DNA from: Candidatus Eiseniibacteriota bacterium | Lineage (GTDB): Bacteria; Orphanbacterota; Orphanbacteria; Orphanbacterales; Orphanbacteraceae | Direction: 5' to 3' | Assembly: GCA_043809585.1 (NCBI GenBank) | Contig: JBDROZ010000070.1 | Span: 15,122-79,121 of the forward strand | DNA: 64,000 nucleotides | Shown: positions 16,592 through 56,229 of the stretch, piece after piece | Position numbering within the stretch: the stretch's first letter is position 1 | How the letters are laid out: every line of letters starts with the position of its first letter | Program-made: the position numbers and the translations under genes | Notes under the pieces: model-generated | What the model saw: the letters and a program-made list of their open reading frames with translations, nothing else | The model's database searches: none | What the model was told of the DNA's origin: nothing

Positions 16592-16650
16592 CCTGATTTT
16601 GAACTCCCAACTTGCAAGGTTTGCGCCGAACGCGATCGGAGGCTTTGAAC

Positions 16651-33285: not shown

Positions 33286-34074
33286 ATGAGAACAGGGAAA
33301 ACAACGCCACTGTTTCTATCCCTGGCCGTAATTGGGTTGTTGGTGGGCGCCGTCCCGAACGCTTCGGCTGTTGTGAACGGCGACTTCGAGGCGGGCGCCG
33401 CTCCTTGGAAGGGGAACGGCGCGAGGGTCAAAGGAATCAACCTCCCGATTCCCCCGGGAGTCGTTCCCATGGGCCCCCAGCACGCAGGCTGGATGCAGGC
33501 GGGCGGTGTACCAGAGCGCATCAGGCAGACGTTCGATTGTGTTCCTCCGGTACCTCCTCCGGAGGCGCATTGCACGGTGACGTTCGATTGGCTCTTTTGG
33601 AAGCGGAATCCCGGTGATGTGGCTCGCGTCGTGCTGCAAAGTGCCGGAGGGGTCTTCGTCGGCATTATCCCCGGAGCGAATCCGCCCTTGCAGGGGCATG
33701 ACTCGATCTCGATTCCGGGCTGTGTGAATCCGACCGAGATCGACTTCTACCTGTTCAATCCGGGGAACCCTCCAGGTTTTGGTGCGATCAAGTCTGTTCT
33801 GGTCGTCGACAATGTCGTTTGCGAGTGCCTGGAAGGGAACCACACCACATTGCAGCAGGGGAGTCTGGGAGAGATCCCGGAGACCGTACCCCCACCGGAC
33901 CAAGACATTCCGGACCGGGAGGATTTCGACTGCGACGAAGACGGTGTCTACGACTTCCAGGAACTGGTCGAAGGAACTCAGGTCGACGAGAATGAGAACT
34001 GGGTCCCGGACGATTGTGAAGCGACCGGTACCGAGAGCGGAAGCTGGGGTGGAGTGAAGACCCTCTTCCGTTAG
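33286..34074 (+). CDS. Secreted Cys-containing hypothetical protein
   Basis: GAGAGGAGAG SD, signal peptide MRTGKTTPLFLSLAVIGLLVGAVPNASA, 10 Cys residues, acidic D/E-rich C-terminal third. Confidence 0.45.
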   Translation: MRTGKTTPLFLSLAVIGLLVGAVPNASAVVNGDFEAGAAPWKGNGARVKGINLPIPPGVVPMGPQHAGWMQAGGVPERIRQTFDCVPPVPPPEAHCTVTFDWLFWKRNPGDVARVVLQSAGGVFVGIIPGANPPLQGHDSISIPGCVNPTEIDFYLFNPGNPPGFGAIKSVLVVDNVVCECLEGNHTTLQQGSLGEIPETVPPPDQDIPDREDFDCDEDGVYDFQELVEGTQVDENENWVPDDCEATGTESGSWGGVKTLFR

Positions 34075-34311: not shown

Positions 34312-34977
34312 CTAGCGTCGCCGGACCGTCAGCCGAAGAGCGGGCAGGTCGCCGATGGTCGCCACGACCTCGTCCCCCTCCACGAGGGGGCCGACGCCTT
34401 CGGGGGTGCCGGTGAGGAGAAGGTCCCCCTCTTCGAGGGTCATGTACCGGGAAGCGTGGGAGATGAGTTCGGCGGGGTCGAAGACCATTCGGGAGGTGCT
34501 CGCCTTCTGCCGCACCGCGCCGTTCACGGTGAGGGACATCACGAGGTCTCGCGGGTCCGGCACGGTCGAGGCCGGGGCGAAGTCGCCCACCGGCGCGGAC
34601 CCGTCGAATCCTTTCGACATCGTCCACGGCCGCCCCCCTCTCTTCGCTTCCGATTGAAGGTCCCGGAGCGTGAGGTCCAACGCGATGCCGTAGCCGGCGA
34701 CGAGATCGGGAGCGTCCGCGGGAGAGACGTCCTTCCCCCCCGCACCGAGAAGAACGGCGAGCTCGAGCTCGTGATGAAGAAGTCCGAAGGAGGCCGGTAC
34801 GAAGAGACCGCCGCCGTCCGGCCGGACGACGGCGGTTCGCGGTTTCAAGAAGAAGAAAGGTTCGTCGGGGACCGTCTCGCCCATTTCCCCGGCGTGGGCG
34901 GCGTAGTTTCTCCCGACACAGAGGACCTTGCGGATCGGGAAGTCTTCTCCGCCGAGACGGACCGAGCCGACGGTCAA
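34312..34977 (-). CDS. Fumarylacetoacetate hydrolase (FAH) family protein
   Basis: KVLCVGRNYAAHAGEMG...FFLKP...LDLTLRDLQ...TGTPEGVGPL motifs of FAH-fold hydrolases/isomerases. Confidence 0.75.
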   Translation of the reverse strand: MTVGSVRLGGEDFPIRKVLCVGRNYAAHAGEMGETVPDEPFFFLKPRTAVVRPDGGGLFVPASFGLLHHELELAVLLGAGGKDVSPADAPDLVAGYGIALDLTLRDLQSEAKRGGRPWTMSKGFDGSAPVGDFAPASTVPDPRDLVMSLTVNGAVRQKASTSRMVFDPAELISHASRYMTLEEGDLLLTGTPEGVGPLVEGDEVVATIGDLPALRLTVRRR

Positions 34978-36950
34978 GGGGCGTCGCTCCTGACGCGCAC
35001 GACCGCCTCGCCCGTCGCCGTCACGCCGTCGGCGGTGATCGCCGTCGCCCGGATCGTCCCCTCGCCCCCCGGCACGGTGCCGAGGAAAACCACCGGGGCG
35101 GGTCCGGAGCCGTCGTCCGGAATCGGAGGCACCGGGGTCGAGCCGCCGCTCGGGTCGCCCCCCGGGCGGGCGTCGAGGGAATCGTCGTAATCGGGAAAGT
35201 GCGGGCCTTCATAGGGGACGAGAGCCCCGATGTTCCCGACGAGCTCCCACTCCACGTCCACGCCCCACATGAGGTCGCCCCGGGTATCGAAAGCGTAGGC
35301 GAAAACGACCGCGCTGTCCCCGGCGGACGCCTCGACCGGGTTCGGCCGGATCTCGACCCTGCTGAGCGCCGGAGCCGGCTCGATTCTCACGGGAACGCTC
35401 TTCACGATGACATTGTTCGACAGGACGTCGGTGATCGTGACAGTCACGACCCCCTCCCCTACATTCTCGGCCCGGAGCCAGGCGCCCTCCGGCCCGGGGA
35501 GCGGCGATCCGTCCGGCGGCCTCGGCATGTCGGGATCCCCGCCACCCCCCTGCCCCGGCTCGGGGCCGGTCGTCCCCCCTTCGCCGAAGCCGTCGTCGCC
35601 GAAGTCACCGTCCCCCCAATCGCCATCCGGCCCCATCCACGGAATCGCGAAGGGCTCGATCGTTCCGAGATCCGCCGGCGTGACCGACCACTCGTACTCG
35701 AGGTCCTCCATGGAGCGGTCCCACTCGTTCAGACCCCGCGCGAAGAAGTAGCCCCCTCCGCCCACGGTGAGCAGCGCGTCTTCCGGGCGAAGGTCCGCCG
35801 AGGTCAACTCGCCCCGGTCGTACACCGTGACATAGACGAAGGTCCGCCAATCCGCCCCCTCGGCCTGCACCGTAATGCTCCCCTCCGCCTCGGGGCTGAT
35901 GTCCGGGTTCGCCGTGAAGCGGGCGAGGCGCACCGCGTCCGGATCGACCGGAAACGGCGGGAACACCGGCCCCTCCGGCGGAACCGGGTCCGTCGGGTTG
36001 CCCGGTCCTTCATCGTCCGGGTCGCCGGCGAAGTCGCCCTCTACGGCGCCCCCGCCCCCGCCCATCGGGTACCCATGGTCGATCCACATTTCATTGAGGA
36101 GCCACTCGAGGATGTTCGCCCGCTCGTCGGCGGGGAGGTCGTCCGCCGCCACGATCGTTCCGATGCCGGAGGGAAATACCCCCCAGAGGAGGTTCGCATC
36201 GGCGTCGACGTGCCCCGCCCCGTTGACCGCCCACGCGGCGAGATATCGCTCGCCCCCCGCGGGGATTCTGAATCTCCACGACGGCCGGAGTTCGATCCGC
36301 ACCACGTCGCCGTCGGCGACCACTTCGATCGGCGCCTCCGCCCGGACGTCGTCCCGGAAAGACGCGACGATCGTCCCCCGCCCGACGGCGGTGCCGATGA
36401 AGATCCCCTCCCGGGAGATCACGCCGATCGGCCTTTCGGAGCGGATCGACCAGGTCGGCCGGTAGCCGATGGCCGGATAAGAGCCGTCCTCCATCGCGTA
36501 GAGGCCGCCCGCCCAGAAGTGCGCGCTTTCGAGAATGCCGACCCGCGCCCCGTCCGGGTAAATGCCGAACTCGCCCAGCACCGCGTCCCGCGGAAGGACC
36601 GTGATGTCCACGCGCACCGTGTCGCCGCCGTGGACGCTCACCTCGATCCGGTTGCTTTGATAGGAGGACCCGGCCCCGGCGTCGACCACGACCGTCACGT
36701 TCCCCGACTCGAGCCCGTCGAAAACGAAAGACCCGTCGGCGCCGGTCACCGTCGTCCGGTCGGTCCCTTCGATGCGGACCGTGACGCCGGCCAGGTTTTC
36801 GGGGGAATCGGAACCGTCGGTCACCTGGCCGCGAAGAACGCCCGGGCCGTCCTCCGGATCGACCGGACCGCTCTCGTTGCCGGAGCACGCGAGAAGAAGC
36901 ATCGAAAGAAGAACAACGGGAATCACCGGAAACAAACGCGGCAACCGCAT
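34974..36950 (-). CDS. Lipoprotein with carboxypeptidase-regulatory-like and bacterial Ig-like (Big) domains
   Basis: MRLPRLFPVIPVVLLSMLLLACSG lipobox, CarboxypepD_reg-like GVTVRIEGTDRTTVTGADGSFVF, repeated Big-like beta-sandwich segments; its stop overlaps the FAH start by 4 bp. Confidence 0.55.
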   Translation of the reverse strand: MRLPRLFPVIPVVLLSMLLLACSGNESGPVDPEDGPGVLRGQVTDGSDSPENLAGVTVRIEGTDRTTVTGADGSFVFDGLESGNVTVVVDAGAGSSYQSNRIEVSVHGGDTVRVDITVLPRDAVLGEFGIYPDGARVGILESAHFWAGGLYAMEDGSYPAIGYRPTWSIRSERPIGVISREGIFIGTAVGRGTIVASFRDDVRAEAPIEVVADGDVVRIELRPSWRFRIPAGGERYLAAWAVNGAGHVDADANLLWGVFPSGIGTIVAADDLPADERANILEWLLNEMWIDHGYPMGGGGGAVEGDFAGDPDDEGPGNPTDPVPPEGPVFPPFPVDPDAVRLARFTANPDISPEAEGSITVQAEGADWRTFVYVTVYDRGELTSADLRPEDALLTVGGGGYFFARGLNEWDRSMEDLEYEWSVTPADLGTIEPFAIPWMGPDGDWGDGDFGDDGFGEGGTTGPEPGQGGGGDPDMPRPPDGSPLPGPEGAWLRAENVGEGVVTVTITDVLSNNVIVKSVPVRIEPAPALSRVEIRPNPVEASAGDSAVVFAYAFDTRGDLMWGVDVEWELVGNIGALVPYEGPHFPDYDDSLDARPGGDPSGGSTPVPPIPDDGSGPAPVVFLGTVPGGEGTIRATAITADGVTATGEAVVRVRSDAP

Positions 36951-37132
36951 GATTGGCCCTCCTAGGGGGTTACAACTATTCAGTTTACCGCGCCGTTGCT
37001 CATCCGTCAATCGACGATTTGGTGCGTTTCGGCCCGATCTACCGTTCCGTTTCGTGCACCGGCGCCGATTTGGCGTCCTCGGCCTCTTTCTCGGGGTCGG
37101 TCCGACACTCGGACCGGAAGGCGCTACCTCAC

Positions 37133-37219
37133 GTGGGGACGCCGAGTTTCGGCAGCACCACCCGCGTGAGGAGGAAGTAGATCACCAGGGCGCCGACGAT
37201 GTAGAGTCCATTCATTCCG
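37133..37219 (-). CDS. Candidate 28-aa single-TM micro-protein (MNGLYIVGALVIYFLLTRVVLPKLGVPT)
   Basis: GGAGGAG SD 6 nt upstream of the ATG; hydrophobic helix; last ORF of the minus-strand operon; below the 60-aa cut-off of the ORF track. Confidence 0.3.
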
Positions 37220-37235
37220 GTTCTCCTCCATCCTC

Positions 37236-37457
37236 TCATCGCACGGAGGCCGCGGACCGCGCGTCCGGACATTCCGGCTTTCCGGTCGCCTTCAGGATTT
37301 TGTCCAGCGGGCAGAACAGGGTGAAGGCCGATTGGATCATGTTCAGGCCGATGAACACCGTGAAGAGCGGGGCGTAGGGCGTCACGAACCGACCGATCGC
37401 CAGGCTTCCGAGGATCATCAGGCCCACCACCACTCGAAACATCTCCTTCTGGGTCAT
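37236..37457 (-). CDS. DUF2892-family small membrane protein (YgaP-like)
   Basis: Two TM helices and the conserved IQSAFTLFCP motif (QSAFTGxCP) of DUF2892. Confidence 0.55.
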   Translation of the reverse strand: MTQKEMFRVVVGLMILGSLAIGRFVTPYAPLFTVFIGLNMIQSAFTLFCPLDKILKATGKPECPDARSAASVR

Positions 37458-37469
37458 CGCTCTCTCTCC

Positions 37470-38723
37470 TTAGAATGTATACCGGATTCGGGTGTACAGG
37501 TTGTCGTTCTTGTCGAATTGTCCGAACTGGGTCCGGTCGCTTTGCCCCTCGAAGAGGTTGCCGCCCGCGGCGATCTCCACCTCGTCAGTCACTTTGTAGC
37601 TCACCATGGGGCGAACGTAGACGTCCTCGTCCGTGGGCGAGTAGAACGTGAAAAGGGAGAGGCGGATCGTGTGATAGAGCGCCATCTTCTCGAGCCGGAG
37701 CGTCACGATCTGGCGCAGCTCGTCCTGCTCCCGCGCCCCCTCCGGCAGACCCGCGGCGTATTTGTCGTGGTCCCCCATGAACTCGCCGTACCACTGGACC
37801 GTCGCGTTCAGGTCGGTGGCGAGCTGCCGTTCGTACCCGGCGAGCATCCGGACCTCTGAGTTCGCCACCATCGGATCGCTCCCGTTCCTGTCCTCGTCCG
37901 AGTCGTAATACCCCGCCTCGAGCCAGTAGACGCCGCCGAAGCCCGTCGACCGGGCGCTCGCGCCGTACACCGCGAGGTTCGGATAGTAGGGAAGCCCGCC
38001 CCCGGTCATCCCCGCGGGGGTCTTCCAGAAGCCCCGGTACCCGTAGAGGGAGAAGTTGTAATCGCCGAAATACTTCGAGAGCCGGAGCGCGATCTCCCCC
38101 TCCTCGATCTCGTTCTCCGGGGCCGTGGGCGGTCCCATGACGCCCGGCGGCGAGTAGAAGGAGAGCCGAGAGCCGTCCGGAAGGCGGTCGGGCGTGAAGG
38201 CCGGCGTCGCCACGAGGTCCACCGTGAAGGGGAGGCCGAAGACGCCGAGCCGCACCGCGTCGGCAGGGGCTTTCAGATACTGGTCCTCCCGGCCGATGAA
38301 GAACGACACCCAGTCCTTCGGAAAGAGGTCGTTCACGAAGATCAGGTCGCCCGTCCCCCAGGTGAGGGCCTGGCGCCCCGCCTTCACCTCGAGCCGGTCG
38401 GCGAGGGTGTTGAACCGGAGAAAGCCCTCGCGGATTTCCCACCCCGCGCCGCCGCCGAGCACGTTGTCCTGCATGATGTCGAGCCGGAGGAACGCCTCCC
38501 CCCGGTCGCCGTAGCTCGAGAGCTTCAGCTGCGCCCTCGTCTCGTTCAGCGTGTAGTCGCGCACATCGTCGAACCTCGGGTCGTCGGCCGTGCGGAGACC
38601 GTAGCCCCCTTCCACGAAGCCGTGCCAATCCACGTCCGCGAATGAACGGCCCGGCAGGGCGGCCGCGACCAGGAGGACCGCCGCCGTCAACATTCGGTTC
38701 CTCGTCTTTCGTCGCCGATTCAT
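37470..38723 (-). CDS. Outer-membrane beta-barrel protein (porin/alginate-export-like) of the MMPL operon
   Basis: Signal peptide MNRRRKTRNRMLTAAVLLVAAALPGRSFA, long amphipathic beta-strands, C-terminal YTRIRYTF aromatic terminus typical of OMPs. Confidence 0.5.
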   Translation of the reverse strand: MNRRRKTRNRMLTAAVLLVAAALPGRSFADVDWHGFVEGGYGLRTADDPRFDDVRDYTLNETRAQLKLSSYGDRGEAFLRLDIMQDNVLGGGAGWEIREGFLRFNTLADRLEVKAGRQALTWGTGDLIFVNDLFPKDWVSFFIGREDQYLKAPADAVRLGVFGLPFTVDLVATPAFTPDRLPDGSRLSFYSPPGVMGPPTAPENEIEEGEIALRLSKYFGDYNFSLYGYRGFWKTPAGMTGGGLPYYPNLAVYGASARSTGFGGVYWLEAGYYDSDEDRNGSDPMVANSEVRMLAGYERQLATDLNATVQWYGEFMGDHDKYAAGLPEGAREQDELRQIVTLRLEKMALYHTIRLSLFTFYSPTDEDVYVRPMVSYKVTDEVEIAAGGNLFEGQSDRTQFGQFDKNDNLYTRIRYTF

Positions 38724-38746
38724 CGTCTCGTCTCCGTCTATCGTGA

Positions 38747-39556
38747 CTACTGGATGTACTCCGAGGGGGGAGCCTTCAGGTAGCGCTCGGTGAACAGGCC
38801 CTCGTCCACGCCGATGTCGTATCGGATGTCCTTGAACTCGACCAGCGTCGAGTGTTCTTTCTTCACGTTGGTCATGCGGCGCTTCGAGATGGTCGTGAAG
38901 CCGTCCACGTCCTTGATCTCTTCCGCCTCGAAGAGGCGCTCGAGCACACCCTTCGTGTCGTAGTACTCCTCGCGTTCCGGAAGCATGTTGTCCTTGCCGA
39001 TCCAGGTCAGCTTCCTCGCGAAGGAGTCCTTCTCCTTCGGCACGCTCTCGATCACGTAGAAGGAGCGGCCGTCTTTTTCCTCTTCCCGGAGAAGGGTGTG
39101 GTTGTCGTCGGTCCAGTGGCGGCCGGAGACGTCCTCGTAGGAGAAATCGCTCCCCACGAAGGACGAGCCCTTGTCGCTCGACGAGATTCGCCGGACCAGG
39201 TCGATCGCCGGAATGTAGATCCACCGCGAGTCGTCCTTCTCCGCTTCCTTCCACACCATGAAGGTGGTGCCGCGCACGTCGCCCGGCTCGAGGAAGTAGG
39301 TCCAGTACTTCTGGGCCCCGCCCTCCTCGAGGTCGAGGCGGAGCATCACGAACTCCCGGATCCGGACCTTCCCGTTCTTGTCCTTCAGCTCCATCGAGAC
39401 CTTCGCCTTGCCGTCGTTCCCCGTGTAGTAGAGGTTCAGGTGGGCGGTCTTCATGAGTTCCGCCGCGTCCTCCGCCGAGGCCGGGCCCGCGGCCAGGATC
39501 CCCGCGGCGAGCACCGCCGCCGTGATCAAGCCGAACAGGGTGTTTCCCTTTTTCAT
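38747..39556 (-). CDS. LolA-like outer-membrane lipoprotein-sorting protein family
   Basis: Signal peptide [28 protein letters not shown]; LolA_like fold signature (WIGKDNMLP..., DFSYEDV) of the type usually encoded beside MMPL transporters. Confidence 0.6.
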
Positions 39557-39578
39557 GGTTCTTGCTCCTTCCTGCTTC

Positions 39579-41936
39579 TTACGAACGGGCCCCGGAAGAC
39601 GCCGCCGAATCGGCCGCGGTTCCGGAGCGCTTCCATTGCTTCCGGCCGGCGAGAAACACCGGATTCATGAGCGAGAGAATCGCCGGGAAGGCGAAGAAGG
39701 TGGTGATGCCGCTCACCACCATGATCGCGAAAAAGAAGGCCCCCACCGTCACGTAGGGAACCAGGCTCGCGAAGAACATGGGGACGAATCCGATGGCGAT
39801 CACCAGGATGTTCCGCGTGATCGCCCGGGAGGGGGCCTCGAAGATCGCGGACATGGTCGCCTTGAAGTCGCCGGTCACCCGGTAGATCTCGCGGCTCCGC
39901 TGCAGGAAGTGGATCGCGAAGTCGATCGAGAGGCCGAGCGTGAGGGACGAGAGAACCGCCACGGGCATGTCGTACGGCTTCCCGATGAAACCGATGAGGC
40001 CGTACACCAGCGTGATCGTCGCGGTCAGCGGGATCACGGACAGAATGCCGAGCCGCACCGACCGGAAGAGGAAGATCATCATCACGAGCACCGTGAAGAA
40101 GCTGCCGAGCAGGGCCTTCATCATGCCGTTCACCATCCTCTGCTGCCAGATCACGTTGATGTACGACATGCCCGCCCACCGGGCGACGAGCCCGCCCGGC
40201 GGCGGGTTCCTCACGAGGAAGTCATCCGCCGACCGCACCACGCTGCTCACTTCCCTGTTCTCCCCCCGGTGCATCTGGACCCAGATGTTCGCCCGGTCCG
40301 ACTCGGGGGTGATGAACTTGAAGAGGTCGTCCGGCGAGCCCCCCGACATCTCGTACAGGAAGAGGTACTGGGCGATCTCCTCCCGCGAGTCGGGGACGAT
40401 CCCCTCCGCCGGGTCCCGTTTCAGCTCTTCCCGCACCTTCTTCACGATGTCCACGATCGACGTCGTGGCGCCCACGTTCGGGTGCTTGTCCAGGTGCTTC
40501 TGAAGGCGTTCCACGTACTTCATCGCCTCCGGGTCCTTCAGGCCCCCCTCCTCGCCCGACTGCACCGAGAGGTACGCGAGATAGGTGCCGGCCAGATGGC
40601 GGTTCATCACCTCGTCGGCGACCCGGAGAGGGTGCCCCGCCTTGAACCACTTCACGGGGTTGTCATTCACGACGATCTTGCTCACTCCGACCGCGGAGAG
40701 CAGGAAGACGAGCACGCCCACGACCACGATCGGCTTGTGGAATCGGAGCGCGAAGTCGCGGATGAAGTGCATCGATCGGCGCATCGCGGCGCCCCCCTCG
40801 CCGGTGGCCCCGAACTTCGCCAGGGTCTTCTTCGGCAGGAGCACCGCGTAGGCGATGTTGAACGTGACGGAGAGGAGCCACGCCGACGCGATGCCGAAGG
40901 CGACGAAGCCGCCGAAGACCTGTACCGGCGGGATCGGGGTCACGATCAAAGAAGCGAAGCCGACCACCGTGGTCAAAGATGTGAAGATCATCGGGATGAA
41001 AAGCTCGTCCATGGTCTCCACGATGGTCAGCTTCATGTCGAGGTGGCGCTGGTACCGTTCGTGAAACTCACTCAGGATGTGGATCGAGTTGAGCACCGCG
41101 ATCGGTATCAGGAAGATCGGAATCATCGAGGACATGATGTGGACCGTGTAGCCGAGGCCGATCAGAAGGCCCATGGTCCAGATCACGCTGATGACGGCGA
41201 CGATCATCGGGGCCGCGATGATGGCCGCGTTGCGGAAGAAGAAGAAGAGCAGGAGGAAGATCACCACGAACGCCGCCGGGGCGGAGACCACCATCTGCTT
41301 GAACATCTCGGCGCCGAAAGTGTCTTGGGCGAGGGGCATGCCGGCGAGGAAGTACTCCTCGTCGTCGCTGCCGAGCTCCGCGAGAACCCCCTCGATCTCG
41401 GTCGCCACCCGGTGGGAGACGTCTTTCGACTCGAGGGGCACGAAGATCGCCATGGCCTTGCCGTTGTCGGAGGCGAGCTTGCCCCGAAGCACCGGGTTCT
41501 TCTTGATCTGGGCGAGCACGCGGGCCGATCCTTCTTCGTCCCTCGGCGCCTCTTCCATGAGTGTCTCTACCCGGAGGATGCCCTCTTCGGTAGTGAAGAT
41601 GTCGTCCACGTCCGTGGGGGCGAGAAGGTCGTCATCGATAACGCCGTCCATCTCCCGGATCCGTTCGGTGATCTCGACGACCCGCGCGAGGGTGGCCGGG
41701 TTGAAGACGCCCTCTTCCTTCACGATGCCCACCACGAGGATGTCGTGAAGCCCGAAGACCTCCTTTACCTCATCGTGAAAGACGCGGACCTCCTCGTTCT
41801 CGGGGAGCATGTTCTCCGGGTCCGTGTCGATGTAGATCTTGGGGAGCTGAACGGCGAAGGCCACGGTCACGGCCAGAATCAGTGCGATGACCACCTTCGG
41901 ATGGTGCATGGAAAAGTCGACCAGGAACCTTTTCAC
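39579..41936 (-). CDS. MMPL-family RND superfamily exporter
   Basis: 785-aa 12-TM protein with two large periplasmic loops and duplicated 6-TM bundles; RND/MMPL motifs (GxSxDFxIHF, [24 protein letters not shown]); GTG start after a GGGAGGAAG SD. Confidence 0.8.
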
Positions 41937-41994
41937 TTTCCTGCTTCCTCCCGTGATAGAGCGGACGGTGTTTCGATTCGATACTCCACCCTAC

Positions 41995-42010
41995 TGCAAC
42001 CGGGGGGCCA
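41995..42010 (-). promoter_or_regulatory. Candidate sigma-54 promoter TGGCCC-cccgg-TTGCA driving the MMPL operon
   Basis: On the minus strand tggccccccggttgca gives GG-N10-GC with a perfect TTGCA -12 element; predicted TSS ~41984, GTG at 41936. Confidence 0.45.
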
Positions 42011-42103
42011 ATACACCGCCGATCCGTCCTCTAAACCACAAGCCATTGAAATCATTGCGAATAGTGTCTCGAAGACAGGTCGGGCCGGACTCCCTCGCTG
42101 CTG

Positions 42104-42160
42104 TTTTTGTTGCGCCGGCCCGGAATTGACGCAATATTCTGTTGCGCCGGGTCGCAACAA
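42104..42160. promoter_or_regulatory. Enhancer-like TGTTGCG dyads between the sigma-54 promoter and the activator gene
   Basis: Perfect inverted repeat TGTTGCG-N6-CGCAACA at 42140-42159 and TGTTGCG-N15-CGCAA at 42108-42134; ~100-170 bp upstream of the predicted TSS. Confidence 0.4.
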
Positions 42161-42221
42161 AGCGGAGACGTTTCCGGGGGGAACGAAACAGCGCGGACGG
42201 CCCGGAAGGAGGAAGGGATCG

Positions 42222-43616
42222 ATGAAGGCGGACGTCGGCAACCTGCAGGTTTGCATGGCCCAGAAGGCGAACATGGAGGCCATCTTTCACAGCGTGGCCG
42301 ACGGCATTCTCACGGTGGACGCCCACCTCGTGATCACGAACATCAATCATGCCGCCGCCCGGGTGATCGGCGTCGAACCGGCGGAGGCCGTCGGCAGGCC
42401 TCTCCGGGAGGTCCTGCTCTGCCGGCTCTGGCGACTCGGCCCGATGCTGAAGGAGACCATGGAGACCGGCGAGGGGGTGGCGGAGCGCGAGAACATCCTC
42501 GTCCGCCCCGACGGCAACGAGATCCGCGCCCTCCTGACGACGAACCGCCTCCTCGACAGCGACGACAAAGTGGCGGGGGCGGTGATCATCCTCCGCGACA
42601 TCACCCACCTCCGGGAACTCGAGGTCCGCCTCGAGGACCGCGCCGCCCTCCACTCCCTCGTCGGGAAGAGCCATCGGATGCAGGAGGTCTATACACTGAT
42701 CGAGCAGGTGGCGCCGACGGACTCGACGGTGTTCATCCAGGGGGAGAGCGGCACCGGGAAGGAGCTGATCGCCGACGCGATCCACCGGAGCAGCACCCGG
42801 CAGGGCGCCCCCTTCATCAAGGTCAACTGCTCCGCCCTCTCCGAGAGCCTCCTCGAGAGCGAGCTGTTCGGGCACGTGAAGGGCGCGTTCACGGGGGCCA
42901 CGTACGACCGGAAGGGGCGGTTCGAAATGGCCACGGGCGGGACGATCTTCCTCGACGAGATCGGCGACCTGACCGAGCGCATCCAGGTGAAGCTGCTCCG
43001 GGTGCTCCAGGAGCGGGAGATCGAACGGGTGGGGGACACGAAGGTCATGAAGATCGACGTCCGCGTTCTCGCCGCCACCCACCAGCCACTGAAAAAGCTC
43101 GTGGACGAGGGCCGCTTCCGCAAGGACCTCTTCTATCGGCTGAACGTGATTCCCATCCACGTCCCCCCCCTCCGGGACCGAAAAGAGGACATCCCGGCCC
43201 TCGCGTCGGTCTTCCTCAGGGAGCTGTCGGCGCGCATGAGGAAGAAGCTCGAGAAGATCTCCCACGACGCCTTGCGGGCGATGATGGATTACGGGTGGCC
43301 GGGCAATGTGCGGGAACTCCGGAACGCCTTGGAGCACGGGGCGGTGAAAACCCGGGGCCCGGCGATCCTCCTCGAGGACCTGCCGGGGGAAATCGTCTCG
43401 GAGACGGCGAAGATCGATTCCGCCTACAGCGCCGGCCCGACCGGGCGCGGCTGGGGAAGCGTCACCCCCTGGGGCGGCCCCCGGGACGAGGGGAAGGCGA
43501 TCCGCACCGCCCTCGAAAAGACCGGGTGGCACCGGGGCAAGGCGGCCCAGATCCTCGGCATCGACAGAACCACGCTCTGGCGGAAGATGAAGCGCCTCGG
43601 CATCGACATGAATTAG
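42222..43616 (+). CDS. Sigma-54-dependent transcriptional activator (PAS sensor - AAA+ sigma-54 interaction - Fis-type HTH)
   Basis: GESGTGKE Walker A, GAFTGA sigma-54 contact motif ([16 protein letters not shown]), DEIGDL Walker [11 protein letters not shown]-terminal HTH ([22 protein letters not shown]). Start at ATG 42222 after GGAAGGAGGAAGGG; the upstream 920 codons of ORF 39453..43616 are antisense to the MMPL operon. Confidence 0.85.
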
Positions 43617-43620
43617 CGTC

Positions 43621-43680
43621 TCCCGCGCAACAGCACGAATGTTGCATTCTGTTGCACCCGAAAGCCGCGCAACAACGCCG
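43621..43680. promoter_or_regulatory. Second array of TGTTGC dyads immediately downstream of the activator gene
   Basis: CGCAACA-N7-TGTTGCA (43626-43646) and TGTTGCA-N12-GCAACA (43652-43678); shares attctgttgcRcc with the upstream array. Confidence 0.35.
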
Positions 43681-43843
43681 CTGCCGGCGCCGCCCCTGCC
43701 AACTCTTTGTTTTACCTTCTATTACAAGAAAGACCGTGGTTTGTCATGGTTCCTGCAATTACCTCGGGGCGAACGGAAGAGAGCGGCGGGCCGAGCGCCG
43801 CGATGAGAGCGAAGAAGGAAACGAGTCCCAGGAGAAGGTAACC

Positions 43844-44185
43844 ATGTCGGAAGCGATCAACATCAGCGATACCCAGTTCGAAGCGGAAGTTCTCCAGTCG
43901 CCGACCCCCGTGGTCGTGGATTTCTGGGCTCCCTGGTGCGCCCCCTGCCGGATGGTCGCTCCGGCGATCGAGAGTCTGAGCCGGGAACTGAGCGGAAAGG
44001 TGCGTTTCGTGAAGATCAACGTGGACGACAACCCGATGCAGGCCTCCAAATACGGCGTGCAGGGCATCCCCACGCTCCTCTTCTTCCAGGGGGGGGAGCT
44101 CGTGGACAGCGCGGTCGGCGCCTACCCGGAGCCGATGCTCCGCGAGAAGGTGACCGAGACCTTCGGAATCGCGGAGACGAACTAA
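43844..44185 (+). CDS. trxA: Thioredoxin
   Basis: VVVDFWAPWCAPCRMVAP...YGVQGIPTLLFF, the thioredoxin fold with a WCAPC variant of the WCGPC active site. Confidence 0.8.
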   Translation: MSEAINISDTQFEAEVLQSPTPVVVDFWAPWCAPCRMVAPAIESLSRELSGKVRFVKINVDDNPMQASKYGVQGIPTLLFFQGGELVDSAVGAYPEPMLREKVTETFGIAETN

Positions 44186-44386: not shown

Positions 44387-45775
44387 CTACCGCTCCCCGT
44401 CGGGCTCGTCCCCCTCCTCGAGCCTCTCCCCGAATGCCGGGGCCGCAAGGAAAAAGAAGATCAACCCGAGATAGTTGTGGTGGAAGATCCGGGAGAAGAA
44501 GAGGAAGAGAAACAGGAAGAGCGCGAAGGAGACGACCGCGGACGACGCCGTCCGCTTCTCGAAGTGCCGCCGGAGCAGCAGCCACCCCAGGGGCAGCACA
44601 ACGGTCAGGTGGAAGATCCAGAACGGAAAGTAATGATACCGGCTCGGGACCAGATGAAACACGTTCACCAGACTGGCGATCCCGTAGCCCGGCGTGCCGC
44701 CGAGCGGATAGCTCACCTCCGACAACCCCACGTTGAACGCGTACGTATCGTCGAAGAACGCCCCCGGGTCCCAGAGAAAGAAGGGAAGCGCGAGAATCAC
44801 GAGCGGCGCGAGACCCGGCAGGGCCTTCTTCCCTCCCCGCCGGAGAACCGCCCCCCATCCCCCGGAGCCCCTTCCCGCGAGCACCACGAAGAACGGCACG
44901 AACAAGAACGCGAACTGTTTCGTCGCGCAGGCGAGCCCGAGAAGCAGCGCCGCCCCCCGCCACCGCCCGGTGATCATCGCGTGAACCGCGGCCACGAGCA
45001 GCACCGCCACCACCACGTCGTTCCGGCCCTCCACGATGTGGGGCACCAAGAACGGGTTGAGGCCCCAGAGGGCCGCGAGGGCGAGCTGGCGGTCCGGGTC
45101 GGCGCTCCACCTCGTCACGAAAAAGAAGGGCGCGAGAAACAGAAGCAGATAGAGAACCCGCCCGTCGTACCCGCCGAATGCCGCCTCGCCCGCGGCGAGA
45201 AACGGTGCTTGGACGAGAAAAGAGAAGGGGAAGTACGGGTGGTGGATGATCGCCGGATTGCCCGGGCCCCAGTCGAGTTCCGCCATCGGCGTCGACCGGT
45301 AGTCCGCGGCGTACGGGTTCGTTCCCCGGAACAAGAACCGAACCGCCTCTTCCGTCTGGATCACGCCGCCGTCGTGGGCGTGCCCCCTCGGTCCGACGGC
45401 AAAACGGAGCCCGATTTCCGCGATCGCCGGCAGCACCACGATCCACGCGACCAGGAGGCCGAGGAGAACCGCCCGAACCCCCGTGCGGGTCTTGCGGAAG
45501 AGAACGCCGAGCGCGGTGAGAGAGTACAAGAGAAGCAGCCCGAGCCCGACGGCGACCCGAAGAGCGCCGATCGGATTCCGCACCAGGCTCGTGTCGAAGA
45601 ACCGGGCCCATCCCGAACCGGTCGCGCCGAGATCCGCGCTGTCCCGCCCGAACTCGAGCTGCCCCTCGGAGGGGAGGTTCAGCATGAGCAGGAGGAAGAG
45701 AAGGACGGCGTCGACCGGGAATCCTCGAACCCCCGTCCGCCCGGCGCCCCGCGCTTTCATCGCTCCGTCGTTCAC
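44387..45775 (-). CDS. Polytopic integral membrane protein, DUF2029/GT87-like (putative glycosyltransferase)
   Basis: 11+ TM helices, Phe/Leu-rich, loop motifs reminiscent of GT-C mannosyltransferase-like proteins; family call is tentative. Confidence 0.4.
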   Translation of the reverse strand: MNDGAMKARGAGRTGVRGFPVDAVLLFLLLMLNLPSEGQLEFGRDSADLGATGSGWARFFDTSLVRNPIGALRVAVGLGLLLLYSLTALGVLFRKTRTGVRAVLLGLLVAWIVVLPAIAEIGLRFAVGPRGHAHDGGVIQTEEAVRFLFRGTNPYAADYRSTPMAELDWGPGNPAIIHHPYFPFSFLVQAPFLAAGEAAFGGYDGRVLYLLLFLAPFFFVTRWSADPDRQLALAALWGLNPFLVPHIVEGRNDVVVAVLLVAAVHAMITGRWRGAALLLGLACATKQFAFLFVPFFVVLAGRGSGGWGAVLRRGGKKALPGLAPLVILALPFFLWDPGAFFDDTYAFNVGLSEVSYPLGGTPGYGIASLVNVFHLVPSRYHYFPFWIFHLTVVLPLGWLLLRRHFEKRTASSAVVSFALFLFLFLFFSRIFHHNYLGLIFFFLAAPAFGERLEEGDEPDGER

Positions 45776-45995: not shown

Positions 45996-47609
45996 CTACT
46001 CGGTCACCTTCATGACCACCATCGTGATGTCGTCCTTGACCTTGGCGCCGTCGATGAACGCCATGATGTCGTCGTAGAGACCGTCGGCGATCCGTTTCGC
46101 CCCGAACTCCGCCCGTTCGGCGAGCGCTTTCCCCAGGCGCTCCGTCCCGAACAACATCCCCGACGGCGAACGGGCCTCGACGATGCCGTCCGTGTAGAAG
46201 AGGACCACGTCGCCGGGCGCGAGGTCCCGCATGCCCACCTCGTACTCCACGTCTTCCTGGACGCCGAGGATGAGCCCTTCCGCGTCCAGGGTCTCCACGA
46301 GCCCCGTCTCCTTCCGGTAGAGGACGGGGGTATTGTGGCCGCCGTTGGCGAAGAGGAGGCGCCGGTTCCGAAGGCCGAGCCGCGCCGCGAATAGAGAGAT
46401 GAGCAGGCTCGACGCGGTGAGGTCCCGGTAGAGGAGGCGGTTCGCCCGCTCGAGAACGACGCCCGGGTTGTCCGAATCGCTCGCCGACGCGAGGAGCGTC
46501 GCCCGGGCGGTGGTCATGATCAGGGCCGCTCCGAGATTGTGCCCCGTCACGTCCCCGATGAGAACACTCACGGACCGGTCCTCCCGAACCACGTACCCGT
46601 AGTAGTCGCCTCCCACGTTGTCGGCGGTCGCGCACCGCCCCGCGAGATCGACCCCCTCCACGACCGGCGCCTCCTCCGGGAGCAGGGACGCCTGGATTTC
46701 CCGGGCGAGTTCGAGGTCCCGTTTCATTCGGGCCGCCTTTTTCAGTTCCTCCACGAGCCGGGCGTTGGCGATCGCCGTCGAAGCCTGGGAGGCGACGGCC
46801 GAGACGAGCTTCTCTTCGCCGCTCGTGAACGGCGCCCGATCCCGCTTCGTCAACACGATGGCTCCGACAACGCCGTCCGCTTCGACCGATGACGACCGGA
46901 GGAGGGGGACGGCCAGCACCGACTCGATCTTTTCCTCACCGGCGTCCCGGAGGAAGTTTTCCTCCGGCGGCTTCTCCTCCGTCACGATCATGGCCCGCCG
47001 GCTTCGGATCACCTCCGCGAGGAAACCTTCCTGGTCCGGATCTCCCGCGGAGTAGCGACAGCGATCGCAACAGCCTCCTTGGGGGGACTTGATGGCGAGG
47101 GGCGTGCAGCGCTTTCCGTCGTAGAGAAGAACGGAACCGCATCGGAACGTCAGGATCGATTCGAGCCGGTCGAGAAGGGTCTCGCCGATCTTCTTCTCGT
47201 CGAAAAGGGCGGCGAACTGATCGCTCAGATCATAGAGGAGGTTCACCTCCTCGTACTTTTCCGAGATTTCCTCGGCCAGGCTGCCGAACTGGTATTCGGA
47301 GTCGAGAATCCCTTCGGCCACCATCGCGACGAGCCGGGCCACGTCCCGCGCATCGGAGCGGCCCTTGCCGGCGCCCCGGACCCTCACGTATCCGACACCC
47401 CGATTCCACGTATGCAGGGGGAACTCGTGGTCCGTGAATTCCTTCCCCCCGGCGGGCGCTCCGTCGCCCCAACCGGCGACCTTCACGCCCTCCAAAGAGA
47501 GGACGTCGACGGCGACGGCGTGAAGTTCGCACATCTCCGTCACGAAGTGGGGGAAACGGCTGTCCGCCGCGAGGGATTCCACTCCCGCGATCGACTGGCG
47601 GTCGTCCAT
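45996..47609 (-). CDS. SpoIIE/RsbU-type PP2C serine phosphatase with N-terminal GAF domains
   Basis: C-terminal PP2C signature (DVTGHNLGAALIMTTARA...LFYTDGIVEA...DDITMVVMK) preceded by GAF-like segments. Confidence 0.7.
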   Translation of the reverse strand: MDDRQSIAGVESLAADSRFPHFVTEMCELHAVAVDVLSLEGVKVAGWGDGAPAGGKEFTDHEFPLHTWNRGVGYVRVRGAGKGRSDARDVARLVAMVAEGILDSEYQFGSLAEEISEKYEEVNLLYDLSDQFAALFDEKKIGETLLDRLESILTFRCGSVLLYDGKRCTPLAIKSPQGGCCDRCRYSAGDPDQEGFLAEVIRSRRAMIVTEEKPPEENFLRDAGEEKIESVLAVPLLRSSSVEADGVVGAIVLTKRDRAPFTSGEEKLVSAVASQASTAIANARLVEELKKAARMKRDLELAREIQASLLPEEAPVVEGVDLAGRCATADNVGGDYYGYVVREDRSVSVLIGDVTGHNLGAALIMTTARATLLASASDSDNPGVVLERANRLLYRDLTASSLLISLFAARLGLRNRRLLFANGGHNTPVLYRKETGLVETLDAEGLILGVQEDVEYEVGMRDLAPGDVVLFYTDGIVEARSPSGMLFGTERLGKALAERAEFGAKRIADGLYDDIMAFIDGAKVKDDITMVVMKVTE

Positions 47610-47761
47610 GGCTTTCGATGCTCCGGCCCCGGGGGGGCGTGACACATTCCAACTTCAATCGAATCATCGGCATAGAACACCAATCCCTTGACGGAAAAGG
47701 GAAGGCCGCTCGCTCCCCGGCGGACGGATGGAGACAAAATCGGATGAAAGAAGGCGGTTTG

Positions 47762-49139: not shown

Positions 49140-51596
49140 CTACCCTTCCTCGTCCGGCCCGATATCCAGGTCCCCGTCCTCCTCGTTCACCACCCGGGCC
49201 ACGGCCATCACCACGTCCCCCTCGTCGAGGTTGATCATCTTCACGCCCTGCGTGTTCCGCCCCATCATAGAGACGCCGCTCACCGCGAGCCGCAGGATGA
49301 TCCCGTTCCGAGTGATGATCATGAGCTCGTCCGAATCGATGACCTCCCGGATGCCGACGAGCCGGCCGTTCCGCTCGCTCGCCTTGATGGTGATGATCCC
49401 CTTGCCGCCCCGTCTCGTTACGCGGTACTCCTCGATGGTGGTCCGTTTGCCGTAGCCGTTCTCGGTCACCACGATGACCGAGCCGTTCCGCTCGAGGGTG
49501 ACCATGCCGATCACTTCGTCCCCCGGATCGACGAAGGCGCCCCGAACGCCCCGGGCCGTGCGCCCCATGGGCCGCACTTCCTCTTCGTGGAAGCGGATCG
49601 CCTTGCCGAGGAGCTTCGCGAGAATGATCTCGCTCGACCCGTCGGTCACCTTCGCCTCGATCAGGCCATCCCCTTCTTCCATGGTGATCGCGTAGATGCC
49701 GACCCTCCGCGGGTTGCCGAAGGCGGAGAGGGGCGTCTTCTTGATGTAGCCCTTGCGGGTGGCGAGGACCAGGTACTTGTCGTCCGGGAAGTCCCGCACG
49801 GCGATGACCGCCGTGACCTTCTCGTCCTGCCGGAGCTGCACGAGGTTCACCACCGCCTTGCCCCGGGCGGTCCGACTCGCCTGCGGCACCTGGTGCGCCT
49901 TCAGCCAGTAGCATCGCCCCTGGTCGGTGAAGAACAACAGGTACGAGTGGGTCGAGGCGATGAAAAGCTGCTCCACGAAGTCCTCGTCCTTCGTCGTCGC
50001 CCCCATGATGCCCCGCCCGCCCCGGTGCTGCTTGCGGTAGGTGCCGACGGGGAGGCGCTTGATGTAGCCGGCGTGGGAGATAGTGACCACCATGTCCTCG
50101 TCCGCGATCAGATCCTCGAAATCGAAGCTGATCACGTCGTCGATGATGTCCGTCCGGCGCTCGTCGCCGTACAGGTCCTTCATCTCCTCGATCTCGTCCT
50201 TCAAGATCTGGCTGATCCGCGCCTCGCTCGCGAGAATGTTCCGGAGGTCCTCGATCGTCTTGATCAGCTCGAGGTACTCCTCCTCGATCTTCTTCCGCTC
50301 CATGCCGGTGAGCCGCTGGAGGCGCATGTCGAGGATCGCCTGGGCCTGCTTCTCGCTCAGATCGAACCGCGACATCAGGCCCTGCCGGGCGGTCTCCGTG
50401 TCGGCCGAGCCCCGGATGAGGGCGATGATCTCGTCGATGTGGTCGAGGGCGATCCGGAGCCCCTCGAGGATGTGGGCCCGGTCTTCCGCTTTGCGGAGAT
50501 CGAACTCGGTGCGGCGCCGCACCACCTCGCGGCGGTGCCGCACGTACTCGGTGAGCAGATCCTTCAGCGTGAGGACCTTCGGTTCCTGGTCGACCAGCGC
50601 GATGAGAGAGGCGCCGAAGGTGTCCTGCATCTGGGTGCGTTGAAAGAGCTGGTTCATGATGACCTGGGTCGGCGCGTCCTTCTTCAGCTCGACCACGATC
50701 CGCATTCCGTTACGGTCCGACTCGTCCCGGATATCCGAGATCCCGTCGACTTCGCCGTCCCGGACGAGCCCCGCGATCTTCTCGATCAGCGTGGTCTTGT
50801 TGACCTGGTAGGGGATCTCGTGGATGACGATCCGCTCCCGGTCGTTCTTGTACGTCTCCATGCTCGTTCGGGCGCGGACCGTGATGCGGCCGTGGCCGGT
50901 CAGGTAGGCGCGGCGGATGCCGTCCACCCCGTGGATCACGCCTCCCGTCGGAAAATCAGGTCCCTTCACGTAATCGAGCAGCGCCACGTCCGGGATGTCC
51001 GGGTTATCGATGACCGCCGTCAGGGCGTCCGCCACTTCCCGGATGTTGTGGGGCGGAATGTTCGTCGCCATGCCGACGGCGATTCCGGTGCAGCCGTTGA
51101 CGAGGAGGTTCGGGAACTTTCCGGGAAGAACGACCGGCTCGTCCTTCGTCTCGTCGTAGTTCGGCCGGAAGTCGACGGTCTCCTTGTCGAGATCTTCGAG
51201 AAGATGGGTCGCGGGCCGGGCCATCCGCGCCTCGGTGTATCGCATCGCCGCCGGCGGGTCGCCGTCGATGGACCCGAAGTTCCCCTGCCCGTCGATGACC
51301 GGGTAGCGCATGTTGAAGGGCTGGGCGAGGCGGACCAGGGTCGGGTAGATCACCTGCTCGCCGTGGGGGTGGTAGTTACCGGAGGTGTCGCCCGCGATCT
51401 TCGCGCACTTCCTGTGCTGGCTTCCCGGCGCGAGCCTGAGGTCGTTCATCGCCACGAGAATCCGGCGCTGCGACGGCTTCAGCCCGTCCCTCACGTCGGG
51501 AAGGGCGCGCTGGATGATCACGCTCATCGCGTACGTGAGGTACGACTCGGTCATCTCCTTTTCGAGTCGAACGGGAAGAATGGTCTCTTGGGTCAT
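49140..51596 (-). CDS. gyrA: DNA gyrase subunit A
   Basis: LKPSQRRILVAM, active-site Tyr region (AAMRYTEARM), GyrA box and C-terminal beta-pinwheel repeats. Confidence 0.9.
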   Translation of the reverse strand: MTQETILPVRLEKEMTESYLTYAMSVIIQRALPDVRDGLKPSQRRILVAMNDLRLAPGSQHRKCAKIAGDTSGNYHPHGEQVIYPTLVRLAQPFNMRYPVIDGQGNFGSIDGDPPAAMRYTEARMARPATHLLEDLDKETVDFRPNYDETKDEPVVLPGKFPNLLVNGCTGIAVGMATNIPPHNIREVADALTAVIDNPDIPDVALLDYVKGPDFPTGGVIHGVDGIRRAYLTGHGRITVRARTSMETYKNDRERIVIHEIPYQVNKTTLIEKIAGLVRDGEVDGISDIRDESDRNGMRIVVELKKDAPTQVIMNQLFQRTQMQDTFGASLIALVDQEPKVLTLKDLLTEYVRHRREVVRRRTEFDLRKAEDRAHILEGLRIALDHIDEIIALIRGSADTETARQGLMSRFDLSEKQAQAILDMRLQRLTGMERKKIEEEYLELIKTIEDLRNILASEARISQILKDEIEEMKDLYGDERRTDIIDDVISFDFEDLIADEDMVVTISHAGYIKRLPVGTYRKQHRGGRGIMGATTKDEDFVEQLFIASTHSYLLFFTDQGRCYWLKAHQVPQASRTARGKAVVNLVQLRQDEKVTAVIAVRDFPDDKYLVLATRKGYIKKTPLSAFGNPRRVGIYAITMEEGDGLIEAKVTDGSSEIILAKLLGKAIRFHEEEVRPMGRTARGVRGAFVDPGDEVIGMVTLERNGSVIVVTENGYGKRTTIEEYRVTRRGGKGIITIKASERNGRLVGIREVIDSDELMIITRNGIILRLAVSGVSMMGRNTQGVKMINLDEGDVVMAVARVVNEEDGDLDIGPDEEG

Positions 51597-51606
51597 GTCC
51601 TATCCT

Positions 51607-53876
<2,270 letters not shown>

Positions 53877-53887
<11 letters not shown>

Positions 53888-56123: not shown

Positions 56124-56229
56124 GAATGTCCTCCTGGACACAGAAAGATAGGTCCCGTCGAGGAGCCCGCGGCTCGCGGCTTCCGTACGCGCATTATAGG
56201 AGACCGCCCCGGAACGGGCAAGGGAAAAC

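Follow-up and report, generated by a model that had tools for sequence, protein, structure and literature searches.

We describe here a five-gene operon, its predicted sigma-54 promoter and the divergent gene of a sigma-54 activator (a bacterial enhancer-binding protein, bEBP), found in a stretch of 64,000 nucleotides (the window, ca. 66% G+C) from a “Candidatus Eiseniibacteriota” bacterium (contig JBDROZ010000070.1, positions 15,122 to 79,121). Open reading frames (ORFs) were searched against Pfam and NCBIfam profiles. In the order of transcription, the minus strand encodes an MMPL/HAE3-type RND inner-membrane transporter (39579–41936, 785 amino acids [aa], GTG start, PF03176), a periplasmic LolA-like carrier (38747–39556, 269 aa, PF17131, also named TP_0789-like), a short outer-membrane beta-barrel with a predicted 18-strand fold and a remote relationship to DUF1302 (37470–38723, 417 aa), a small YgaP-like_TM/DUF2892 inner-membrane protein (37236–37457, 73 aa, PF11127), and a single-helix micro-protein, MNGLYIVGALVIYFLLTRVVLPKLGVPT (37129–37215, 28 aa, ribosome-binding site GGAGGAG). 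The genes are separated by gaps of 12–23 nt, with good ribosome-binding sites throughout. The divergent activator gene (42222–43616, plus strand) encodes a protein of 464 aa with a PAS, an AAA+ (GAFTGA) and a Fis-type helix-turn-helix domain.

The five-gene operon and its families had been proposed before from the nucleotide sequence alone (the original prediction), and the ORFs, ribosome-binding sites and Pfam matches confirmed them. Domain searches and the barrel fold likewise agreed with the proposed combination, with an RND pump in the inner membrane, a LolA-fold protein in the periplasm and a barrel in the outer membrane. The genes lie as described there, with the ends placed slightly off, since the stop codon of the peptide ends at 37129 and the activator gene at 43616.

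Predicted sigma-54 promoter, activator and putative second target

The predicted promoter, TGGCCCCCCGGTTGCA, is the reverse complement of positions 41995–42010 (minus strand). Its −24 GG and −12 GC are exactly 10 nt apart, and it ends 58 nt 5' of the GTG start of the MMPL gene, with a transcription start predicted near 41984. When both strands of the window were scored on a weighted TGGCACG-N4-TTGCW scale, with Markov-simulated sequence as the null, this was the sole site reaching a score of ≥14.5 in 64 kb, for a simulated expectation of 0.27. Three more sigma-54-like matches scored 14.0, at 16577–16592 (TGGCATGAGACTTGCC, 20 nt 5' of a small-GTPase-like ORF), 33620–33635 (TGGCTCGCGTCGTGCT) and 56668–56683 (TGGCACGTCATCTGCC, between dnaA and dnaN), and were discarded as poorly placed and at chance level (1.6 expected). 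No sigma-70-like site was detected in the MMPL–activator intergenic region by a simple scan, which is an insensitive one.

The activator matched PAS, Sigma54_activat (PF00158, 242.8 bits), AAA_lid_14 (PF25601) and HTH_8 (PF02954), with GAFTGA intact at 42882. Among related loci (labeled L001 onwards), an orthologous activator gene with 56–76% identity and the same divergent position occurs, in some cases interrupted where the contig stops, in L001–L003, L005–L008, L010, L012, L013, and L017. These loci form the closest clade and are labeled Eisenbacteria, Gemmatimonadota or unclassified. In nine of them (L001, L002, L003, L006, L007, L008, L012, L013, and L017) the element TGGCCC-N5-TTGC[AG] lies 38–64 nt 5' of the MMPL start, and degenerate −24 forms appear in L005 (GGGTCC) and L010 (CGGCCC). 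The five spacer bases and the flanks of the element vary from locus to locus, and the MMPL start codon of the window aligns with the starts of its orthologues.

A block of GCAAC/GTTGC half-sites is also conserved, 100–165 nt upstream of the promoter. In the window this block (UAS1, 42105–42161) contains two copies of TGTTGCGC, together with GCAATATTCTGTTGC and a perfect inverted repeat of 9 nt, TTTGTTGCG/CGCAACAAA. The GCAAC and TGC columns are invariant in an alignment of 10 orthologous intergenic regions, and four or more GCAAC/GTTGC pentamers within 90 nt occur in the MMPL 5' region of nine related loci, L019 among these. We consider these repeats, from their pattern of conservation, putative activator binding sites. 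A third GCAAC cluster, in L005 (11700–11730), is unrelated, being a simple tandem repeat, (GCAACGG)4, located 3' of the micro-peptide gene. Between the repeats and the promoter of the window, a stretch richer in A/T, TTTCAATGGCTTG (42037–42049), resembles a binding site of the integration host factor (WATCAANNNNTTR); the orthologues have an A/T-richer patch in the same interval, without a conserved motif.

The conservation of promoter and repeats amounts to a phylogenetic footprint, and the regulatory reading is thereby backed. The sigma-54 promoter with GG-N10-GC geometry and the complete divergent bEBP of the original prediction were both upheld, the former by its exact spacing, its uniqueness in the window scan and its conservation in orthologous loci, and the latter by its domain matches, and the comparison of synteny found the unit conserved in relatives. 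Control of the operon by sigma-54 and the bEBP is thus well supported, and we consider it highly probable on the strength of these sequence features. This wiring is specific to the closest clade, and it is the only part of the system that is so.

Two further arrangements were observed in other loci. In L019 (Krumholzibacteriota), an orthologue of the activator (5187–6760, 46% identity) lies upstream of the MMPL gene on the same strand, CGGTACGCACATTGCG is found 34 nt before the MMPL start, and six GCAAC/GTTGC pentamers occupy positions 6555–6600; judging from these elements, we take it to be the same regulon with a rearranged gene order. In Victivallales, the canonical elements TGGCACGCCCGTTGCG (L029, ca. 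5710–5725) and TGGCACGCTTGCTGCA (L053, ca. 5730–5745) are located ca. 105 nt 5' of the MMPL gene, and tblastn found no activator gene nearby in either locus. This pattern may reflect an independent recruitment of sigma-54 to the module.

Compared with solved structures, the PAS domain gave weak best matches (the PAS domains of PA0861 and FixL), and there was no close relative among them that would point to a ligand. A cysteine in the conserved PAS N-cap (Cys11, 42252–42254) is invariant in 9/9 aligned sequences (the window and eight orthologues), down to 46% identity. It may serve as a thiol switch or as a cofactor ligand, and its invariance is compatible with a redox cue, which is only a hint.

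The repeats are not confined to the operon. The octamer GCGCAACA/TGTTGCGC has only four copies in 64 kb, two of them in UAS1 and the other two, at 43625 and 43667, between the stop codon of the activator and a gene for a thioredoxin (43844–44185, plus strand, 113 aa, WCAPC, PF00085 E 5e-31). This putative second activator binding region (UAS2, 43625–43674) comprises GCGCAACA, TGTTGCA, TGTTGCAC, and GCGCAACA again, and ca. 75–115 nt downstream of its repeats stands a sigma-54-like element, TGTCATGGTTCCTGCA (43742–43757, plus strand), that is conserved 5' of the thioredoxin gene. In L001, L002, L005, and L006, where the thioredoxin gene adjoins the activator as well, the corresponding elements are TGTCACGCTTCCTGCT, TGTCACGAATCCTGCA, TGTCACGATTATTGCT, and TGTCACACTTCCTGCA, respectively, each preceded by paired GTTGCA repeats. 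The pattern TG[GT][CT]A[CT]-N5-[CT]TGC[AT] has a single match in the window and in each of these four loci, always 5' of the thioredoxin gene. The element, TGTCAY-N5-CTGCA, keeps the −24/−12 spacing and has GT, not GG, at −24. The −24 GG of sigma-54 promoters is reportedly almost invariant, and for this reason we rate the element as “sigma-54-like” and its function as a promoter as presumptive. Given its conservation, the chances that it places thioredoxin in the regulon as a second member seem to us about even.

Pump, carrier and barrel across phyla

The pump passed the Pfam MMPL model (PF03176, E 6e-33). Its best-matching RND subfamily was TIGR00921 (HAE3, TC 2.A.6.7), aligned over residues 11–756 of 785 (E 9e-57) with a score of 192.6 bits, below the cut-off of 351.9 bits; the match to TIGR03480 (HpnN) had an E value of 2e-20. 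Asp672 and His676 (in the motif GxSxDFAIHF) do not vary among 29 aligned sequences, nor does His286, and N or D occupies position 283. The pair Asp672/His676 is consistent with a proton relay and with a proton-coupled RND transporter, and by analogy with MmpL3 the conserved residues would belong to transmembrane helices TM4 and TM10.

The carrier matched PF17131 over nearly the whole profile (positions 2–183 of 184) with 196.8 bits, against a cut-off of 30 bits. There was also a weak partial match to DUF1329 (PF07044, 27.6 bits, residues 82–143), to which PF17131 is a sister family. Its N-terminus is a plain cleavable signal peptide without a lipobox Cys. The closest solved structures were 9tp6 (LolA3 of Porphyromonas gingivalis, E 9e-45), 4z48, and 3bk5. 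LolA3, a protein with a hydrophobic groove, shows neither the Arg signature of LolA nor the Leu signature of LolB and no binding to LolB, and its authors attributed a separate function to it (PMC13103446). Of the trans-envelope route for lipids or lipoproteins put forward in the original prediction, the export of lipoproteins is not supported, considering the plain signal peptide, an RND protein that is not a partner of the LolCDE kind and the lack of LolB binding by LolA3.

The barrel has a signal peptide, ends in ...RYTF and is 100% identical to the NCBI record ABIK65_09260. Its match to DUF1302 (PF06980, E 0.22, 10.9 bits) is below the cut-off of 23.2 bits; weak DUF1302 matches were obtained in 19/21 members of the barrel family (the best with E 7e-9), and the Bacteroidota counterparts are called DUF1302. 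No relative by sequence was found among solved structures. In a fold comparison, the model of the barrel resembled substrate channels of 18 strands, including the exporter AlgE, and the uptake channels Occ/OprD.

To follow the module in other genomes, we collected 83 loci encoding relatives of the barrel and mapped the proteins of the window onto them by tblastn. The barrel family is large, with more than 4,000 detectable relatives, and is represented in the genomes of at least 565 GTDB species. In ca. 75 of the 83 loci, the genes for pump, carrier and barrel stood side by side in one orientation. More than 12 phyla are represented, among them Eisenbacteria, Gemmatimonadota, Krumholzibacteriota, Zixibacteria, Planctomycetota, Verrucomicrobiota, Lentisphaerota, Desulfobacterota, Nitrospirota, Nitrospinota, Methylomirabilota, Proteobacteria (Halomonas), and also Bacteroidota. 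Two Bacteroidota operons were retrieved with LolA3 as the query. In Porphyromonas macacae (L084) the genes run TetR–MMPL (801 aa)–hypothetical–methyltransferase–LolA3–DUF1302 (411 aa)–two ABC half-transporters, and the carrier shares 82% identity with the fragment of P. gingivalis LolA3 that served as the query; Bacteroides zoogleoformans (L085) has the bare MMPL–LolA3–DUF1302 (420 aa) trio. Each protein of the trio has its homologue in the window, with identities of 24% for MMPL, 35–39% for the carrier and 21–22% for the barrel. Because the activator is confined to the closest clade, the trio appears to be old and its regulation local.

DUF2892 protein, micro-peptide and genomic surroundings

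The fourth gene product was recognized by PF11127 (E 1.4e-9, 38.4 bits against a cut-off of 25.3 bits). A YgaP-like/DUF2892 homologue is found inside the cluster in ca. 44 of the 83 loci, where it follows the barrel, precedes MMPL or stands between MMPL and the LolA-like gene, and this recurrence at different places argues for a functional linkage with the trio. From gene order, we therefore count DUF2892 as a fourth partner that recurs with the module.

The micro-peptide was not recognized by Pfam or NCBIfam when the window's own sequence was scanned. Its C-terminus, LP[KR]LGV[PS]T-stop, is conserved in L001–L006, and a scan of JGI metagenomes with a back-translated DNA pattern gave at least 120 loci (L086–L205). 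Among the 120 matches listed, 116 were hydrophobic ORFs of 25–40 aa (mode 28–30) ending at the motif. They represent at least 111 distinct metagenome sequences ending in [VI][LF]P[KR][LF]GVPT, with a W/Y at −16, an L at −13, and a Q/M at −12 also conserved, residues that were not imposed by the search pattern. A large unannotated family of membrane peptides of ca. 29 aa is thereby exposed.

Counting same-strand genes among these matches, the neighbors of the peptide were YgaP-like_TM (23–26 loci), thioredoxin (ca. 17 loci), an ArsR-type regulator immediately upstream (14 loci), DUF302 (9 loci), an AcrB-type RND pump upstream (9 loci), a P-II-like protein upstream, between the AcrB-type pump and the peptide (4 loci), CoA-disulfide-reductase–rhodanese (3 loci), and DUF6132 (3 loci). 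The pump–carrier–barrel trio was adjacent in one of the 120 matches listed (L087), which weakens the possibility of an AcrZ-like subunit specific to the pump. The DUF2892 protein and the micro-peptide, which the original prediction lists in one operon with the pump, are not peculiar to it: they make up a separate widespread pair, mostly beside ArsR, thioredoxin and rhodanese-type genes. Given these usual neighbors, the DUF2892 protein, the peptide and thioredoxin look like parts of a widespread membrane module associated with thiol, sulfur or metal stress, and in Eisenbacteria this module looks, from its gene context, to have come together with the HAE3 trio under the control of a single activator.

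The peptide also stands at the end of metagenomic operons with an AcrB-type RND, a YgaP-like and a P-II-like gene (e.g., L143). In P. macacae (L084, 131–3564), an AcrB-type RND gene and then a small P-II-like gene are located immediately upstream of the TetR–MMPL–LolA3–DUF1302 operon, a pair that echoes the metagenomic order RND–YgaP-like–P-II-like–micro-peptide.

At the 3' side of the operon, directly after the stop codon of the peptide, there is a GC-rich hairpin, GGUCCGAG-UGU-CGGACC (37098–37116, minus strand). Its fold energy is no better than that of shuffled sequence (z −0.8) and no T-run follows, so the end of the operon is uncertain and the hairpin a possible but weak candidate for it. 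A sigma-70-like site (37010–36982) precedes the next gene (34974–37010, minus strand), which encodes a CarboxypepD_reg protein of ca. 650 aa; there is a lipobox in MRLPRLFPVIPVVLLSMLLLAC, probably the true N-terminus of the protein, and the gene is syntenic in L001, L002, L004, and L186. The conserved neighbors of the operon are this CarboxypepD_reg lipoprotein, an FAA hydrolase and a GT87 glycosyltransferase. The last one (44387–45775, MptA/B-like, membrane bound) has GT87 counterparts beside the thioredoxin gene in L001 and L002 and is followed in the window by a GAF–SpoIIE (PP2C) phosphatase (45996–47645). The operon belongs to the core chromosome, at ca. 13 kb from the neighborhood of the replication origin, all on the minus strand, with gyrA (49140–51596), gyrB (51607–53544), a recF-like gene (53877–54980), dnaN (55005–56231), and dnaA (56894–58255). 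Neither Rfam families nor tRNAs were found in the window, and the lack of Rfam matches speaks against a riboswitch or leader RNA in the 58-nt 5' region.

Proposed function and comparison with known systems

The reading that we favor, and hold to be moderately probable, is that of an RND/HAE3-type exporter that spans the envelope and whose expression is inducible through enhancer-dependent control. Its gene content, domain families, barrel fold, conserved synteny, promoter and repeats are direct observations. From them we infer DNA binding, in vivo dependence on sigma-54, the direction of transport, the hand-over, the class of substrate and the signal, as follows. The activator would bind the GCAAC/GTTGC repeats ca. 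100–165 bp upstream of the promoter and, once its signal is sensed, would remodel sigma-54 RNA polymerase at TGGCCC-N5-TTGCA, upon which the five-gene operon would fire; the PAS cysteine and the link to thioredoxin hint at a redox or thiol cue. The proton-driven MMPL pump would extract its cargo, a lipid or a small molecule of hydrophobic or amphiphilic nature, from the inner membrane and pass it to the soluble LolA-fold carrier, which would deliver it to the 18-strand barrel, to be inserted or released. Co-induced with them, the DUF2892 protein and the 28-aa peptide would be accessory proteins of the inner membrane, and the thioredoxin gene would probably be co-activated from the second site, with its non-canonical −24 GT element.

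Several points weigh against this proposal. No rpoN (RpoN-box ORF) was found in the 64-kb window or in the related loci examined, and among the papers listed by a literature search on rpoN in Eisenbacteria, none mentioned Eisenbacteria. The thioredoxin element is without the near-invariant GG. No biosynthetic or catabolic gene near the operon indicates a substrate. Most occurrences of the DUF2892 protein and of the peptide are not in MMPL contexts, and hence the two may not be pump subunits at all. Finally, relatives of the trio are induced or needed on very hydrophobic substrates, data that could equally be read as uptake. In an importer, the barrel would admit a long-chain alkane, wax or fatty ester, the carrier would ferry it, and the MMPL protein would insert or receive it at the inner membrane. 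In its favor, TOL_3187 and TOL_3188 of Thalassolituus oleivorans showed 42-fold or exclusive induction on C28 alkane, Pseudomonas putida mutants in DUF1302/DUF1329 and BNR/RND genes lost fitness on Tween 20 and butyl stearate, and the barrel is similar to the Occ/OprD uptake channels. However, the characterized RND and MMPL transporters move their substrates outward, to our knowledge, and no alkane or fatty-acid catabolic genes flank the operon in the window, L001, or L002. Moreover, deletion of ameABCD, a related cluster of Castellaniella defragrans, led to lower monoterpene tolerance and a higher influx of Nile Red (PMC6394551), an experimental precedent for the export reading. We thus consider uptake unlikely.

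The export system that we propose could also be a stress-response route for export or detoxification tied to iron, redox or thiols, with a hydrophobic cargo that is siderophore-like, haem-related or sulfur-containing and with thioredoxin, the DUF2892 protein and the peptide as the redox part of its regulon. The P. gingivalis operon PG1175–81, which shares the gene content of L084 (TetR–MMPL–LolA3–DUF1302–ABC), is reportedly upregulated 13–136-fold under iron limitation, and a Prevotella intermedia operon of matching content 40–220-fold. The apparent co-regulation of thioredoxin, the invariant Cys of the PAS N-cap, the relatives of the micro-peptide beside ArsR, thioredoxin, DUF302, CoA-disulfide-reductase–rhodanese and DUF6132 genes, and FUR, catalase and ferritin genes at 5 kb in L001 point in the same direction. 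However, all of this is guilt by association, the additional ABC and methyltransferase genes of the Porphyromonas operon are absent here, and the window contains no siderophore or sulfur-oxidation genes. We rate this option as tentative and of low probability, and it narrows the substrate of the favored reading, being a refinement and not a contradiction. As for the regulation, the match to TGGCCC-N5-TTGCA could be fortuitous, with a housekeeping-type promoter driving the operon and the activator regulating something else. The lack of rpoN in the sequences examined would fit this, as would the uncharacterized promoter types of the phylum and the insensitivity of the simple sigma-70 scan. Nevertheless, position, orientation and exact spacing are kept where the surrounding sequence no longer aligns, the element strictly co-occurs with the divergent activator and with repeat clusters at a typical enhancer distance, and 0.27 such sites are expected per window, all of which makes a chance match very improbable.

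Clusters with HAE3, LolA-like and DUF1302-like genes exist in hundreds of species and surface in work on hydrocarbon degradation and solvent tolerance and, for oral pathogens, on iron limitation, and their function is poorly understood. The locus described here unifies the short three-gene form across phyla, names DUF2892 as its recurrent fourth partner, and offers a clean and comparatively well-defined switch composed of activator, putative binding repeats and promoter. It also includes a possible non-canonical sigma-54 promoter and thereby a putative dual-promoter regulon. New here are the second putative activator site with the GT −24 element 5' of the thioredoxin gene, the LP(K/R)LGVPT peptide family and the partnership with DUF2892; no concept is overturned. 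Speculatively, and we regard this as rather doubtful, the pump, the LolA3-type carrier, the barrel and DUF2892 might constitute a distinct pan-bacterial proton-driven shuttle for a hydrophobic cargo, functionally analogous to Lol, Lpt or Mla, which in Eisenbacteria would be wired together with thioredoxin and the micro-protein into a thiol/redox sigma-54 regulon that includes a working GT −24 promoter.

The original prediction had seen the combination of such genes with enhancer-dependent control as unusual, which was overstated: the trio is widespread, sigma-54 favors exterior functions and for a cluster of this sort in Burkholderia there is an earlier prediction of sigma-54 control. Francke et al. 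found that nearly all diderms bearing lipopolysaccharide retain sigma-54 and that it preferentially governs functions of the cell exterior, so its use at an exporter operon fits a known theme. In Burkholderia sp. 383, the activator AphR (of the XylR/DmpR type) was predicted to control a homologous DUF1302/PF07044/COG1033/COG4447 cluster. However, the sensor of AphR is a V4R/XylR-type aromatic one tied to phenol catabolism genes, whereas the activator described here has a single PAS domain and no phenol genes.

Other known systems resemble the operon in part. In T. oleivorans, MMPL and LolA-like domains (TOL_3187) followed by a porin-like protein (TOL_3188) form a similar set, with pump and carrier fused there and separate here, and two gammaproteobacterial loci of Halomonas related to it (L045 and L080) have the barrel family of the window and a YgaP-like gene. 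The Bacteroidota operons (PG1175–81 with LolA3 PGN0947 in P. gingivalis, L084, and L085) share the trio, with similar sizes (ca. 790, 260, and 411–420 aa), but have TetR, ABC half-transporters and a methyltransferase in place of the sigma-54 activator, and neither a DUF2892 protein nor the micro-peptide was detected in them. HpnN, an HAE3 protein and thus of the same broad RND family, moves hopanoid lipid from the inner towards the outer membrane and functions without co-encoded periplasmic or outer-membrane partners (PMC6394551); no hopanoid genes were found near the operon. In the Lol pathway (LolCDE–LolA–LolB), a soluble LolA-fold protein carries hydrophobic cargo between the membranes, as we propose here, but the energizer is an ABC transporter and the acceptor is LolB, in contrast to a proton-driven RND pump and an 18-strand barrel.

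There is also a likeness to AmeABCD of C. defragrans and the DUF1302–DUF1329–YCF48/BNR–COG1033 clusters, in which an HAE3-type pump is likewise encoded with a LolA-superfamily protein and a DUF1302-type barrel. Clusters of DUF1302–DUF1329–COG1033 are known in Pseudomonas, Shewanella, Delftia (the “nanopod” cluster), and Desulfobacterota ORM2a, and the DUF1302/DUF1329/BNR/RND genes are co-fit in Shewanella and Pseudomonas. AmeABCD-type clusters are inducible and tied to hydrophobic compounds, and a tripartite envelope-spanning route has been proposed for them. However, their cassette includes a YCF48/BNR (COG4447) periplasmic propeller, which is missing from the window operon and was not called in L001, L002, L084, or L085 either. 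The carrier is of the short PF17131 type here (269 aa versus 451 aa) and the barrel is shorter too (417 aa versus ca. 605 aa) and only remotely similar to DUF1302, and the DUF2892 protein, the micro-peptide and the PAS-type sigma-54 activator further set the window operon apart. Without the propeller, with a shorter PF17131 carrier and with a barrel of ca. 415 aa, the operon would be a sister variant of AmeABCD and not a member of it. Judging from these sequence comparisons, the transport module does not represent a new kind of system and is best described as a regulated variant of a widespread family, sister of the AmeABCD and DUF1302–DUF1329–HAE3 systems.

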